Source of the DNA: Candidatus Marinacidobacterales bacterium
Lineage (GTDB): Bacteria; Acidobacteriota; Vicinamibacteria; Marinacidobacterales; SMYC01
NCBI GenBank assembly: GCA_965224085.1
Contig: CBDCYI010000004.1
Span: 1,280,001 to 1,344,000, forward strand
DNA length: 64,000 bases
Direction of reading: 5' to 3'
Each line of letters starts with the position of its first letter. The stretch's first letter is position 1. The position numbers and the translations under genes were made by a program. The notes beneath the pieces were generated by a model. That model made no database searches. It was not told where the DNA came from and was given only the letters and a program-made list of their open reading frames with translations. This document shows positions 2,627 through 7,575 of this stretch, in pieces.

Positions 2627-2854
2627 ATGAAACAGATATCTATTCATGTCGCGGAAGAGGAATACGAGGAGCTCAAGCTATTGGCGGCGACTCGACGCGA
2701 GCCCGTGGCTCAACTCATACGCAAAGCGATGCGAGCCTTTCTCGAGTCTGAGAGAGCGAGCGAATCGATGCGGGGCCTCCGGGCGCACGACAGTGGCAAT
2801 CTGCTCAGGAAATGGAGCCGAGACGAGATATACGACGAGATGCTCGACCGATGA
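2627..2854 (+). CDS. CopG/RHH antitoxin (VapB-like)
   Basis: MKQISIHVAEEEYEELKLLA...VAQLIRKAM ribbon-helix-helix; ATGA overlap with the PIN gene. Confidence 0.8.
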   Translation: MKQISIHVAEEEYEELKLLAATRREPVAQLIRKAMRAFLESERASESMRGLRAHDSGNLLRKWSRDEIYDEMLDR

Positions 2855-3300
2855 GCCGCGACACGGTCGCGCTCGATACCGATGTGCTCGTTCATTGGTC
2901 CATGAGCGGGTGCGAGCATCATCGCGCCATGCGCCGTTGGGTTGACGCAGGCCTTGAGCGAGGACAACGCCTCGGGCTCACACACCAAGTGCTTTACGAG
3001 TTCATCCACATTGCTACCGATCCACGACGTTTTGAACGTCCCATGGCGATGCAGGCAGCCGTCGATTTCGTACGACGCCTCTGGACCGCGAGGGAGGTTG
3101 CACGACTGATTCCGCTGGTCGCCGTCGTGCCACGAGTTTGCGAGCTGGTCGAAACGTTTCAACTGGGTCGCAAGAGAGTCCTCGATACCGCGCTCGCAGC
3201 GACCATCGACGCGGCCGGTGTCACACGGATCGCAACCTTCAACTCGAGTGACTTTGCGGTCTTCCCTTTCTTGCAAGTCGAAGACCCGTCCACCGATTGA
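2851..3300 (+). CDS. vapC: PIN-domain toxin (VapC family)
   Basis: VALDTDVLV, VLYEF, VLDTALAA and TFNSSDF acidic PIN motifs. Confidence 0.85.
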   Translation: MSRDTVALDTDVLVHWSMSGCEHHRAMRRWVDAGLERGQRLGLTHQVLYEFIHIATDPRRFERPMAMQAAVDFVRRLWTAREVARLIPLVAVVPRVCELVETFQLGRKRVLDTALAATIDAAGVTRIATFNSSDFAVFPFLQVEDPSTD

Positions 3301-3320: not shown

Positions 3321-3494
3321 ACTTATCCGCTCGCGGATTTCTTGACGAGAATTTGGGCGCTCAAGGACAATGTTTCAGCCTATGACGGCGCCTACGTGAG
3401 TCTCGCCGAGGCGCTCGGCGCCACTCTGTTGACTGGAGATCACCGACTGACCAAAGCCACGGGCACCCGAGCCGTTATCGAGCTACTCGAATAG
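3321..3494 (+). pseudogene. C-terminal fragment of a second VapC/PIN toxin
   Basis: TYPLADFLTRIWALKDNVSAYDGAYVSLAEALGATLLTGDHRL; no start or N-terminus. Confidence 0.7.
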
Positions 3495-3737
3495 TCTCGA
3501 CACGTCAGCGTGGATCACCGAATCGGCGAGCGCCGAACGGAACACCCCCGTTCGCGTGAAGGACGTCTATTCGATGAAGAGCTTCACTTCGCCGCTTTCT
3601 TTCAGCGAAATAACCGTTTGGATGCCGGTCTGAATCTCTTCCTGTTTCAAGTGATGGGATGGACTCCTCCGCTGACATAGACGGCATCGATGTGCCAAAG
3701 TCAGTCGAAAGAACGCATCGAAAAAGGAGGAGTCCGA

Positions 3738-4772
3738 ATGAAAGATACGACGATCGCTGTGGGTCTTGCAAAGAACGTCTTCGAGATTGCCATCTCGCGC
3801 GAAGCGGGGAAGGTGTCCAAGCAACTCCGTGTGAGTCGACCCAAGTTGGTGTCGTTTTTTGCGAAACAGAGCGCTGCCACCGTGCTTCTTGAAGCCTGCG
3901 GCTCGGCTCACTTCTGGGCAAGGACGTTGCAACGGTTGGGACACGACGTCGTCCTGCTCCCACCTCACCTCGTAAGGCCGTATCGACGCGGGAGCAAGAA
4001 CGACCGCGCGGACACCAAAGCTTTGCTCGAGGCTTACCGGAACGAGGAGATTCTTTCGGTGCCCATCAAGTCCGTGCGCCAGCACACCCTCGCCGCGCTC
4101 CATCGCCTACGCTCAGGATGGCTCTCCACACGGACCGCACGCATCAATGCCGTACGCGGGATCCTGCGCGAGCTCGGACTCTTCATCCCCAAGGGCGCTC
4201 ACTTCGTCGTGCCCGCCATCTCCGAACTCGTCGAAGACGCTGATTCTGATTTGCCCGACGTGCTCCGTCCGCACCTGCGTGATGCGTGCTCCGAGATTCG
4301 AGAGCTCAAGGACAAGTGCGCTGGCATCGAGCACGAGCTCAAGGCGCTCGCCAAGCAGCTTCCTGAGGTGCAACGACTTCTCACCATTCCCGGCATCGGA
4401 CTTCTGACCGCGACCGCCATCGTCGGCTTCGTTGGGGATCTGCGCCGCTTCCCATCGGGACGCCGCTTCTCGAGTTACCTCGGCCTCGTTCCCAAAGAGA
4501 ACTCCAGTGGTGACATTCGCCGCCTCGGGCGCATCACCAAGCGTGGCGACTCCTACCTCCGTACGCTCCTCACGCAGGGCGGACGCGCCGTGCTCCGAGC
4601 GGCCAACGTCAGCAAGAGCCCGCCCGACAAGCTCCGCGCCTGGGCGCGGAAGGTCCACCGCTCGCGGGGACACAACAAAGCCGCGATTGCTGTCGCCAAC
4701 AAACTCGCCCGGATAGTCTGGGCCGTCTCCACCCGCGAGAGTGAATTCCAGTCGGTGCCCGCGGCCGCATAG
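3738..4772 (+). CDS. IS110/IS1111 DEDD recombinase (transposase)
   Basis: RBS AGGAGG; LEACGSAHFW, KNDRAD, IPGIG, SYLGLVPKENSSG, GRITKRGD, AVANKLAR; the first catalytic Asp reads Gly. Confidence 0.92.
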   Translation: MKDTTIAVGLAKNVFEIAISREAGKVSKQLRVSRPKLVSFFAKQSAATVLLEACGSAHFWARTLQRLGHDVVLLPPHLVRPYRRGSKNDRADTKALLEAYRNEEILSVPIKSVRQHTLAALHRLRSGWLSTRTARINAVRGILRELGLFIPKGAHFVVPAISELVEDADSDLPDVLRPHLRDACSEIRELKDKCAGIEHELKALAKQLPEVQRLLTIPGIGLLTATAIVGFVGDLRRFPSGRRFSSYLGLVPKENSSGDIRRLGRITKRGDSYLRTLLTQGGRAVLRAANVSKSPPDKLRAWARKVHRSRGHNKAAIAVANKLARIVWAVSTRESEFQSVPAAA

Positions 4773-4799
4773 AGGCTCCACTTTCGTGTTTTCCTTCTT

Positions 4800-4995
4800 C
4801 CCTTCCAACAGAGGCTGCGACGATACCCATCCAACTGATGGCGTACCGGTCGGACCGGCGCGGGGTCAAGCCGATAGCAACACTGGCCCTCAGAGGTCGC
4901 TCAAAGTGATTGGCTCCTCGCGCGCGGATTTTCCGTCATGGCCCGGAGCACCCAAGACGCTCCTCACTGAGGCCGTAGATATGTTTGCAGTCTGA
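4800..4995 (+). ncRNA. Putative bridge/seek RNA (target- and donor-binding loops)
   Basis: Two stem-internal loop-stem modules (4869-4915, 4924-4988) whose loops match the target and donor junction sequences; RNA ends are approximate. Confidence 0.75.
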
Positions 4996-5099
4996 CCCAC
5001 TCGTCACCGATTTGGACGAGCAGCTCTGAGGAAGACTTTTTTGAGAAAGGTGTTGATTGAGGAGTCCAGATATGTTGCTTGATCCGCGGCTTGGCGTCT

Positions 5100-7088
5100 T
5101 CATGGCTCTCCCGTGACTTGATCGCGAGGGAGGGCGAACGCGGTAAGCTTCGCGCCCTCACCGACTCCGTTCGCGATGACGACATATTGCTTGCCCGAAC
5201 GGCTGAGATAGGTCATGGGATTGGCGTTGCCCCGCTGCCCCAAGTCTCCTTCCCAGAGCTCCTCACCCGTCGCCTTGTCGAACGCGTAGAGTGTCGTACC
5301 ACCGCCGGTCAGGAACACCAGCCCGCCGCCGGTCACGATGGGGCCCGGCGCGCCGACGACTCCGAGCCGCTCGGGAAGTTCGATACCCCGAAGCGCTGGA
5401 TGGTTGCGCACTCGCGGCATGTCGCCCACCGGCACCTGCCAGAGGTGCTCTCCCGTGTCAAGATCGATCGCGGTCAATGTGCCGTAAGGCGGCTTGTGGA
5501 TGGGCAGCCCGTTTCGGAAGCTCAGACCCCGGCGTGCTCGGTCGATTTCGTAGTCGCCCTCGGTTCGGGCCGGATTCGCTTCCCTGATCGCGAGAAGGCT
5601 GGGCGTGTTGGAAGCTTTCACGTAAAGCACTCCAGTGTCTGGATCCGCGGCGGCACCACCCCAGTTCGCCCCGCCCACGACTCCCGGCATGATGATCGTG
5701 CCTTCTTGGGACGGCGGAGCGTACAGGGGACCGTAGTGGTAGTTCTTGATGAGCTCCTGCGCTTCGGCCTCGAGCTCGGGTGTAAAGTCGATGAGCTCGT
5801 CCTCGGTAAAACCTTGTCGAGCGAACGCGAGGGGTTTCGTGGGAAACGGCTGCGTCGGGGAGCTCTGCTCCCCAGGCACGTCGCTCTGCAGAACCGGACG
5901 CTCCTCGATCGGCCACACGGGCTTTCCGCTCACGCGGTCGAAGACATAAACGAACCCCATCTTCGAGGGAGCGGCCACAGCGTCGATGGTCCGCCCGTTC
6001 ACTTCGATCGTAAGGAGCGTCGGCGGTGAGCCGAGGTCGTAGTCCCACAGCCCGTGGTGCACTGCCTGAAAGTGCCAGAGGTGCCGGCCGCTGCTCGCGT
6101 CCAGACAAAGGAGGCTTTCGGCGAACAAGTTGTCCCCTTTGCGGTGCCCCCCGTAATAGTCGTTGCTCGGCGTCCCCACGGGGAGATAGAGAAGGCCCCT
6201 AGTCTCGTCCAGCGTGAACGGAGCCCAGACGTTGGTGTGCCCCGTGTAGCGCCACGAGCCGTCCTCCCAGGTCTCGTTGCCGAACTCTCCGTCCTGCGGG
6301 ATGAGATTGAAGCTCCACGCCAGCTCCCCGGTGTGGACGTCGAAAGCCATGACGTTCCCTGGAGGATCCCGGCGGTAGACAAAACCGTCCCACACGCCGT
6401 TTCCGAGGATAACGAGATCTTCGTAAACGACCGGCGGTGACGTCTGTGTGTAGTGGAGGCGGTTGGTGTGCCACGTCGCGTGCTCGGTGAGATCGATTTC
6501 CCCTCGATGACCGAAGCTTCGAATCGGCTCACCGGTCGACGCATCGAGAGCGATCAAGCGCCATCGGCTGTTGAGGAAGATGCGTCGCTCGTTCCCGCGC
6601 GTCCAGGCCGCCACGCCGCGATGGACGAATCCCATTCCGTTCGGCACTCGGCCCCAATCATAGGCCCGCGGATCGTAACTCCAGATTTCTTCCCCGGTAT
6701 CGCTATCGAGTGCCACGACCCGGTTGTAAGGAGTACTGAGATACATCACGTCTTCCAGGACGAGGGGTGTCGCTTCGAAGCCTGCCGGCCGGACGGCCTG
6801 CCCGGGAATCGGCTGCTGGGGCCCAGGAATCGGCTTCTCTCCCGTGTCCCACGTCCAAGCGACTTCGAGACTGCTGACGTTCTCACGGTTGATCTGGGTG
6901 AGAGGAGAGTATTTCTTGCCGCCCGCATCTCCTCCGAAGACGGGCCAATCGCCCTCTTCCACACTGGCGCGCGGCGCGGCGCAGGCCGCGAGCGTGCCGG
7001 TCAGAACCCAGAAGAGCGGTCTTTTTAATCGCGAGCGTAGATTCCAAGTTACGGCGTTCCTCGTTCGGTCTTTGGCATCGACAGACAT
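5100..7088 (-). CDS. PQQ-dependent (glucose/quinate-type) dehydrogenase, lipoprotein
   Basis: YSPLTQIN, FEATPL, HHGLWDYD, GGANWGG, ANPMTY..GKQYVVI; LAAC lipobox; ATG 7088 follows the upstream stop. Confidence 0.9.
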   Translation of the reverse strand: MSVDAKDRTRNAVTWNLRSRLKRPLFWVLTGTLAACAAPRASVEEGDWPVFGGDAGGKKYSPLTQINRENVSSLEVAWTWDTGEKPIPGPQQPIPGQAVRPAGFEATPLVLEDVMYLSTPYNRVVALDSDTGEEIWSYDPRAYDWGRVPNGMGFVHRGVAAWTRGNERRIFLNSRWRLIALDASTGEPIRSFGHRGEIDLTEHATWHTNRLHYTQTSPPVVYEDLVILGNGVWDGFVYRRDPPGNVMAFDVHTGELAWSFNLIPQDGEFGNETWEDGSWRYTGHTNVWAPFTLDETRGLLYLPVGTPSNDYYGGHRKGDNLFAESLLCLDASSGRHLWHFQAVHHGLWDYDLGSPPTLLTIEVNGRTIDAVAAPSKMGFVYVFDRVSGKPVWPIEERPVLQSDVPGEQSSPTQPFPTKPLAFARQGFTEDELIDFTPELEAEAQELIKNYHYGPLYAPPSQEGTIIMPGVVGGANWGGAAADPDTGVLYVKASNTPSLLAIREANPARTEGDYEIDRARRGLSFRNGLPIHKPPYGTLTAIDLDTGEHLWQVPVGDMPRVRNHPALRGIELPERLGVVGAPGPIVTGGGLVFLTGGGTTLYAFDKATGEELWEGDLGQRGNANPMTYLSRSGKQYVVIANGVGEGAKLTAFALPRDQVTGEP

Positions 7089-7089
7089 G

Positions 7090-7575
7090 TTAACGGCCTC
7101 TGAGCCCGGACCGGAGGCGGAGAGCCTGTTTCCTTCCTTCCGCCGCATCCGCTACGGGAGCATCTTCCCATTGGTAGGTTCGCTCGTTGGCGTATTCTTC
7201 GAACCATTCCAGCTCCGCGTTCATCTTGAACAGCTGATGACGTAGCTCCCTCCAGCCGTGCGGCTCCCTTGGCGCGATGTAGAGACGCGTTGGAACCCCG
7301 TTTGCTTTGAGCGCCCGGTACAGCTCCACCGATCGGGGCGACGGGACGCGGACGTCTTTCTCGCCCACCAGGATTAGAATCGGCGTCTTGATCTTCGCGA
7401 CGTCCTTTAACGGGGACTGCTCCCAGTAGAGATCGGTCGGCGCATCTTTCTGCCAAGGAGTACCTCGAAACCAGGGTGTGCGGTAATAGCGCACGTCACT
7501 CTGCGCGTACATGGACACGAAGTTCACGATGCCGGCCCCCGAAGAAGCGGCCTTGAAACGATCGGTCATGGTAAG
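7090..7575 (-). pseudogene. C-terminal fragment of S9 prolyl oligopeptidase
   Basis: TDRFKAASSGAG, TPILILVGEKDVRVP, PREPHG; the nucleophile GxSxG region is missing. Confidence 0.8.

Follow-up and report, generated by a model that had tools for sequence, protein, structure and literature searches.

The window, the whole 64,000-nucleotide stretch of Candidatus Marinacidobacterales DNA analyzed here, contains at positions 3652-5074 one copy of an IS110-family, IS1111-group element that is 1,423 bp long and has TG at both tips. Its transposase gene is preceded by a left non-coding end of 86 nt (3652-3737) and followed by a right non-coding end of 302 nt (4773-5074). We put at roughly 0.9 the probability that this is an IS1111-group copy whose right end encodes a bispecific guide RNA of ~158 nt, of the kind called a bridge RNA or long seekRNA. 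A first-pass annotation of the same DNA had described an IS1111-type RNA with four readable guides, and the four segments of its two internal loops do match the target and the donor. The stems and loops that it placed are all present in the sequence, including a module 2 stem GCGGA (4924-4928)/TTTGC (4984-4988), and removal of 3652-5072 joins ...TTTCAAG to TG-TTGCTTGA, which is the target that it had rebuilt. The RNA that it drew at 4860..4990 is real but too short: the conserved RNA extends from 4838 to 4995 and includes an extra 5′ hairpin and an outer stem on module 1.

Assignment of the element to this family draws on both the protein and the DNA ends. The transposase matches the Pfam families PF01548 (DEDD_Tnp_IS110, 1.4e-09) and PF02371 (Transposase_20, 9e-26) and scores 301 bits against the NCBIfam model NF033542, 'IS110 family RNA-guided transposase', for which the cut-off is 140. 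In an alignment of transposase homologs (A3), E53, D93, and the S-x-G of the motif GL-P----SG are invariant, and D90 is nearly so. An N-terminal DEDD RuvC-like domain is thus followed by a C-terminal PF02371 domain with Ser-Gly, the features of IS110 membership, while subterminal repeats, a right end longer than the left, and relatedness along the full length of the transposase (judged by pairwise identity) are those of the IS1111 group. The subterminal inverted repeats are 9 bp each, are set 9 nt (left) and 7 nt (right) inside the TG-inclusive tips, and are kept in relatives down to ~45% protein identity. For comparison, the available text of PMC11208160 gives a range of 7-17 bp for repeats of this type in the IS1111 group, which is set apart from the IS110 group by subterminal repeats together with a long right end (PMC11187229, PMC11208160, as far as the available text of each extends). 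Among plasmid records, the named relative that matches best is an ISPa25-family transposase, with 47.1% identity over 99% of the protein; ISPa25 is treated as an IS1111-family member in the accessible portion of PMC11187229. Identity to ISPa62 and to ISPpu25 is 43%. Judged by these features, the element is a new, as yet unnamed IS1111-group (IS110-family) insertion sequence, for which a prior listing is possible.

Conservation and fold of the right end

Within the right end, positions 4830-5011 are identical in all nine of the genomic copies compared, and 4838-4963 is the sole non-coding DNA still found by BLAST in homologs of 45-63% protein identity. A covariance model, R1, was built from 13 diverse aligned right ends; its structure was written by hand and consists of the two modules of the first-pass annotation with the addition of the 5′ hairpin (4846-4858) and of the outer stem (4859-4865/4916-4922). 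R1 was searched in 100 sources, namely the window together with 99 loci that genome and metagenome scans had provided and that represent relatives of 38-99% identity, and gave 96 matches at E <= 0.001, of which 95 lie on the transposase strand. In the resulting alignment, A5, standard pairs occupy 90.3% of cells, and compensatory changes occur in 29 of 36 pairs (476 cells). The covariation score is 0.417, compared with 0.142 for shuffled alignments (the observed value being reached by 0/500) and with 0.04-0.07 when the pairing partners are slid by 1-3 columns. All seven helices are supported, and the GGCC/GGCC stem of module 2 changes from C-G to A-U in 17 rows.

A scan of 3500-5300 against Rfam 15 returned no family matching 4773-5074 even at E <= 10; three weak matches, far below their gathering scores, all fall outside that interval. 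Matches of R1 itself were obtained in two right ends, that of an ISPa25-family element (89.4 bits, E 3e-21) and that of a related integron-borne element (80.1 bits). The first of these matches indicates that the RNA is homologous to that of the IS1111 subgroup of Siddiquee et al.

Taken alone, the window is suggestive rather than decisive with regard to its matches to target and donor, because 31/2000 mononucleotide shuffles of 4773-5045 attain the 9 nt matched to the rebuilt target, 533/2000 attain the 7 nt matched to the donor, and 10/2000 attain both. A fold of the single sequence recovers module 1 and the GGAGC/GCUCC hairpin but misses both outer stems of module 2. It is the comparative evidence that decides in favor of the structure. 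Long-range pairs proposed by RNAalifold from the 13 seed sequences (columns 3-15 with 139-154) clash with the local 5′ hairpin and were set aside, since that hairpin shows compensatory changes.

Guide segments and the DNA that flanks them

The two segments of the target loop overlap on TG, with 4876-4884 complementary to the top strand and 4904-4908 identical to it. A tenth pair, at +6, could be formed by U4875; the consensus insertion site has A there and the window's own site T. Because TC is conserved at -5/-4 of the insertion-site consensus, the left guide may be longer than first drawn, and a reading as UCAA(A)GUG from 4901 with one bulged A is suggested. At the donor loop, relatives that bear CCAUCA in the 5′ segment pair perfectly with their left ends.

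The correspondence between guides and flanks was measured across the family. Element ends were located independently of the guides, by searching for the longest inverted repeat shared by the stretch preceding the gene and the stretch following the RNA. Of the 95 plus-strand rows, 80 have a repeat of at least 8 bp, 68 a credible subterminal repeat, and 52 are complete, which together provide 46 distinct target-guide pairs. The longest Watson-Crick run between a guide and its own junction was compared with the runs against the other 45 junctions, using 10,000 permutations. The 5′ segment of the target loop scores 6.93 against the top strand of its own right junction and 3.80 against those of other elements; the 3′ segment of the same loop scores 4.96 and 3.44, respectively, against the left junction's bottom strand; and the 3′ segment of the donor loop scores 6.54 and 4.40 against the bottom strand of the right end. 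The permutations reproduced none of these three results (0/10,000 each), so that the covariation of loops with flanks expected among homologs is found for three of the four segments.

Four controls paired guides with the wrong strand or the wrong side. Two are clearly flat under both scorings, and in the other two some weak signal is left: for the target 5′ segment against the left junction (23/10,000, Watson-Crick only), which may reflect the two pairs that this guide makes to the left of the core, and the target 3′ segment against the top strand of the left junction (555/10,000, or 89 with wobble). The gap between own and cross scores is at most 0.4 in the controls with residual signal, against 1.5-3.1 for the real pairings.

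Stems are kept while loops differ between relatives, and individual elements illustrate this. Independent cases are provided by guide AACGCGACAU beside ...TG-TCGCGTT (L164), guide UAACAACCG beside CG-GTTGTTA (L056), and guide UAGCAGGGU beside ACCCTGCTA (L064). A naturally retargeted element, L030, has 90% DNA identity and shares a genome with the L031 type; the segments of its target loop are AACAAUCGU and GCAGCG, and its insertion site is CTCCAG-TG-ATTGTTA. L030 is a single copy, with no further copy of its type in its genome, and four distant elements that have its 5′ guide likewise lie beside CG-ATTGTTA. From relatives and natural variants of this kind, we infer that the system would be programmable.

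These data bear on a reading of the right end as an ordinary 3′ untranslated region (UTR), in which the structure would serve as a terminator, stability element, or attenuator and the matches to the flanks would be due to chance. The modest statistics from the window alone and the null thermodynamic z-scores given below are what such a UTR would lead one to expect. Against it, loop sequences change between elements whose stems are preserved, they follow the flanks of their own element and do so only on the proper strand and side, and the right end holds no terminator-like site; the guide-to-flank permutation result already contradicts it, and we consider it scarcely credible. A guide function for the two loops is also compatible with a second alternative, in which the segments act as single-stranded right-end DNA in the manner of IS200/IS605 guide DNA. 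Covariation of loops and flanks cannot by itself separate RNA from DNA, and the contigs from RNA libraries described below leave module 1 uncovered and carry neither strand nor ends. However, G-U pairs are kept at two helix positions, in 63/89 and 64/89 rows; such pairs hold stably in RNA, whereas the other strand would have A-C mismatches in their place, and they identify the + strand as the folded one. Moreover, RNA derived from the non-coding region (NCR) of relatives co-purifies with transposase and is essential, according to the available text of PMC11187229, and in a relative from that seekRNA group the right end is matched by R1. A DNA guide is accordingly very improbable, and the right end appears to encode a genuine IS1111-type bridge/seek RNA that is well supported by the comparative record (Table 1).

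Table 1. Coordinates of the element and of the predicted guide RNA in the window.
Feature	Position	Strand	Observation
Left TG dinucleotide, 'core' copy adjoining the left end	3652..3653	+	TG before left end in 46/46 unique junctions
Left-end terminal extension ATGGGAT, read by donor loop 5′ segment	3654..3660	+	complementary to CCGUCA 4933-4938, one G-T wobble
Left subterminal inverted repeat GGACTCCTC	3661..3669	+	reverse complement of 5059-5067
Transposase gene, IS110-family DEDD, 344 aa, Gly for first catalytic Asp (residue 9)	3738..4772	+	
Conserved bridge/seek RNA region, model R1	4838..4995	+	R1 match 139.5 bits; covariation
5′ hairpin CCGGU-CGG-ACCGG (helix 1)	4846..4858	+	compensatory changes in 5/5 pairs
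Target-binding module (module 1)	4859..4922	+	
Module 1 outer stem	4859-4865/4916-4922	+	compensatory changes in 7/7 pairs
Module 1 closing stem AGCCGAT/ATTGGCT	4869-4875/4909-4915	+	compensatory changes in 5/7 pairs
Target guide 5′ segment AGCAACACU (DNA AGCAACACT)	4876..4884	+	pairs with top strand AG-TG-TTGCT
Module 1 inner hairpin	4885-4898, stem 4885-4888/4895-4898	+	compensatory changes in 3/4 pairs
Target guide 3′ segment AAGUG	4904..4908	+	pairs with bottom strand of AAG-TG
Donor-binding module (module 2)	4924..4988	+	
Module 2 closing stem	4924-4927/4985-4988	+	compensatory changes in 1/4 pairs
Donor guide 5′ segment CCGUCA	4933..4938	+	pairs with TG-ATGG of left end, one G-T wobble
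Module 2 GGCC/GGCC stem	4940-4943/4971-4974	+	compensatory changes in 3/4 pairs
Module 2 hairpin GGAGC/GCTCC	4945-4949/4959-4963	+	compensatory changes in 5/5 pairs
Donor guide 3′ segment AGAUAUG	4977..4983	+	identical to right end AGATA-TG
Right subterminal inverted repeat GAGGAGTCC	5059..5067	+	reverse complement of 3661-3669
Right-end extension AGATA and right TG dinucleotide	5068..5074	+	

In most members of the clade (A5), integron-borne ISPa25-type relatives among them, the target guide starts with UAACA or UAGCA and the element lands beside TGTTA(G) or TGCTA(G). We take this landing motif to resemble the GTTAGGC-type end of integron attC sites.

Insertion sites, core dinucleotides, and genomic copies

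Copies in the genome of origin are flanked as (A/T)TCAAG-TG ... TG-TTGCT(A). Two related Candidatus Marinacidobacterales genomes carry the element at 99% and ~93% DNA identity, the second of them in at least 17 full copies. Junctions pooled from the three genomes comprise 46 unique left and 28 unique right examples, none of which is internal to another copy. At the left junction, the counts at -5 to -1 are T44 C42 A40 A44 G45 of 46, followed by TG in 46/46; at the right junction (n = 28), those of the core are T23 G26 and those of +1 to +6 are T21 T24 G21 C20 T25 A17. Five left and three right junctions in this pool come from relatives with other guides, and their removal would sharpen the logo. 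The consensus insertion site, ATCAAG-TG-TTGCTA, is the one that the target loop predicts. The specificity AGCAA-CA-CTT, first read from the window, is therefore borne out and extended by the pooled junctions, and the copies share one insertion motif where unrelated sites might have been found.

Most of these sites lie within one genomic repeat beginning GGTGCTTCCGCCATCAAGTG, and agreement beyond the positions covered by the guide consequently reflects the repeat and not recognition. Of the 10 left junctions in the genome of origin, 6 are outside the repeat and still read TCAAG (three times), TCGAG, GAAAG, or ACGAG. The genome contains no unoccupied copy of the exact consensus site, CCATCAAGTGTTGCTA, and only near-cognate units with TTGGTG or TTGGCG; occupied sites have TTGCTA at this place, and the unoccupied units have one mismatch to the guide.

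The landing repeat is ~55 nt long, with the form GGTGCTTCCGC(C/A)AT(C/T)AAGTGTTGG...GCTAGAGTTTGAGCC and a second variant tail, and is present in ~30 intergenic copies in the genome of origin; examples are found at 967-1017 and 3349-3399 of locus L171. Two inverted copies flank the host GCS2 glutamate-cysteine ligase gene. We considered whether the repeat could be the terminal repeat of another transposon and rejected this on account of the host gene between the inverted copies and the number of intergenic copies; it behaves like an intergenic repeat of the REP type and not like a transposon end.

The dinucleotides at the two junctions are frequently unequal. Among 47 distinct guide sets with both junctions readable (L030-L170), left and right agree in only 8, and the commonest left/right combinations are TG/CG (13) and TA/TG (9). 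The core in the target 3′ (bottom-strand) guide equals the right-junction dinucleotide in 29/47 sets and the left one in 7/47, and one uninterrupted near-cognate site, GCAG-CG-CGTGTTAG, has CG where occupied left junctions have TG. The window type, with TG on both sides (3652-3653 and 5073-5074), is a minority in the clade. The CA/TG core of the first-pass annotation hence holds for the window type, while the symmetric picture that it implies may fail for the clade as a whole. We regard it as possible, and only tentatively so, that the two-base core of the clade is not a symmetric shared overlap. If so, the left dinucleotide would travel with the element and the right one would come from the target, as would result from a cross-over 5′ of the core or from transfer of one strand followed by replication, and the unequal dinucleotides would be a natural footprint of IS1111-type recombination that departs from the IS621 Holliday-junction model. 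Copy-out followed by top-strand insertion, which the available part of 10.1101/2025.10.25.684509 proposes for an IS110 element, may offer a frame for them.

Two further observations concern the dinucleotide at the right end. The sister element of ~93% identity (L031-L049, OZ250169.1) has the donor loop AGAUACG though its right end is AGATA-TG. Right ends with CG number two, one in L041 and one in the genome of origin on contig C5 near 1163745.

The source assembly holds seven full-length copies, two nearly full ones, and many fragments, with 98-100% identity. Two copies, that of the window among them, have Gly at residue 9 of the transposase, the first catalytic Asp, as had been noticed for the window from its sequence; the residue is Asp in 7/9 of the genomic copies compared and in 9/9 aligned homologs. 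Because Gly replaces this Asp, the window copy is probably not autonomous, the mutation in its enzyme gene being likely to disable it. Its ends are perfect and its RNA gene is identical to that of siblings that carry Asp, and the copy could therefore be mobilized in trans. Since these natural siblings exist, the Gly-to-Asp repair of the transposase that had been suggested for a recombination assay is needless.

The state of the copies also raises the possibility that all members of the family in this genome are decaying relics, with guides and sites left by past activity and no copy active now. Of the nine copies, two have D9G, one a premature stop at codon 59, and one a deletion with an altered C-terminus, and many copies are truncated or rearranged, all of which would suit a relic. 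Five of the nine nonetheless retain an intact 344-aa frame with Asp, three of these with both ends complete; the copies have scarcely diverged, and their RNA region is invariant in 9/9. In addition, the tandems of full and partial copies, with TG at the joint, suggest that the recombinase acted at a time when the copies already existed. We consider it unlikely that the family is a relic.

Partial 3′ copies that include the RNA region often stand in tandem behind full copies, both in the genome of origin and in L031, L032, L040, L041, and L047. Examples in the former are at 651832-653820 and 514573-517317 of contig C9, 1162059-1163745 of C5, and 1230824-1232928 of C4. At the tandem junctions, the right end and its TG are joined to an internal TG at element positions 629, 857, 1040, 1342, and 1376, giving five distinct breaks with TG; one junction lacks TG, and one is a complex case. 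Insertion into a sibling copy, with homologous deletion afterwards, could account for this arrangement, as could a module-wise movement of the sort reported for ISPpu9.

Proposed mechanism and relation to known systems

In the proposed mechanism, the RNA would be transcribed together with the transposase gene or after it and bound by a recombinase tetramer of the DEDD/Ser type. Module 1 would pair with both strands of ATCAAG-TG-TTGCTA, its 5′ segment with the top strand and AAGUG with the bottom strand, and module 2 with the joined element ends, AGATA-TG-ATGGGAT, where CCGUCA would read TG-ATGG of the left end. The recombinase-RNA complex would then bring donor and target site together, and strands would be exchanged at TG. 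That the RNA is made, is bound by the enzyme, and directs recombination is likewise inferred from experiments on relatives.

Several results weigh against a functional guide RNA at this locus or reduce the force of the evidence for it. The donor 5′ segment shows no significant covariation among the 46 guide pairs (own 5.11, cross 4.97; 1677/10,000, Watson-Crick only), a test without power, as the two partners hardly vary within the family. Guide and target descend together in relatives, and the permutation counts consequently overstate independence. Because A5 was fitted to the structure of the model, its pair counts are biased in favor of it; it is difficult to account in another way for the slid controls and for how many distinct pair types occur. 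The check by folding that the first-pass annotation had called for gave no thermodynamic support, the folding energy being no better than that of shuffles (z = -1.33 for 4773-5074 and +0.11 for 4838-4995). At -6 and +6, the site occupied by the window copy, TTTCAAG-TG-TTGCTT, does not follow the consensus, and D9G in this copy may mean that there is no activity at the window locus. As to expression, four sponge metatranscriptome runs provide contigs that cover part of 3647-4793 and, in one run, 4946-5079, at low depth; none falls on 4816-4913, and these contigs have neither strand nor ends and could derive from DNA carry-over. No sigma-70-like promoter was found in the linear element or across the computed end-to-end junction, for which the host consensus may differ; with the ends joined, the best promoter-like match is 8/12 and lies inside the left end.

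The closest described systems are ISEc11, ISPa11, ISKpn4, and ISPst6, in which RNAs of ~80 and ~150 nt from the right end co-purify with the transposase; in ISEc11, the non-coding region and its RNA are essential and reprogrammable (PMC11187229, available text). The present element is similar to these and to ISPa25 in its ~340-aa transposase with DEDD and G-L-x-P-x4-S-G motifs, its subterminal repeats, its long non-coding region after the gene, and its repeat-type targets. As far as the same text describes them, seekRNAs have the same order of segments, with the one that matches the top strand 5′ of the one that matches the bottom strand; the conserved 158 nt is within the range given for long seekRNAs (145-170 nt), and module 1 alone fits the short form. 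In contrast to the elements of that report, this one belongs to another host lineage, has the target ATCAAG-TG-TTGCTA in a genomic repeat of ~55 nt, and is known here from sequence alone. Whereas target matches only are described for the short seekRNA in the portion of PMC11187229 available, a second loop that matches the donor is readable here.

With IS621 and ISCro4 (PMC11208160, available text; PDB 8wt6, 9t56), the predicted RNA shares two internal loops, one for the target and one for the donor, whose segments pair with opposite strands and overlap on the core dinucleotide, and the recombinases are of the same superfamily. Unlike in those elements, the RNA is in the right end and not the left, and long subterminal repeats are present; unlike in IS621 as presented in the available part of PMC11208160, the strand order within the loops is reversed, the 5′ segment being complementary to the top strand. 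Similarity of the transposase to those of IS621 and ISCro4 is weak and confined to C-terminal residues 192-303 (E 4e-8 and 1e-7). The core is TG here, and that of IS621 we take to be CT.

ISPpu9 of Pseudomonas putida is an IS110-family element that resides in repetitive extragenic sequences and has a small-RNA gene after its transposase gene; stand-alone copies of the RNA module occur elsewhere in the genome, and the RNA, Ssr9, is not required for transposition (PMC12288879, in the text available). The present family resembles it in having right-end fragments with the RNA region only, apart from or beside full copies. In contrast to the dispensable Ssr9 as that source reports it, the RNA loops here match target and donor.

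RNA-guided IS110/IS1111 recombinases are under development as programmable tools for DNA insertion, and the present element contributes an IS1111-type system that is cleanly readable and comes from an uncultured acidobacterial lineage, with four guides, both ends, and dozens of sites. The ~46 natural guide variants on one scaffold amount to a natural mutagenesis table of free positions and required base pairs. No new principle is revealed; the unequal dinucleotides at the left and right junctions are the one point that may bear on mechanism.

To the left of the element in the window are two open frames on the + strand, at 2812-3300 and 3342-3494. To its right is a convergent 682-aa frame on the - strand (5100-7148), whose stop codon is 26 nt from the element.

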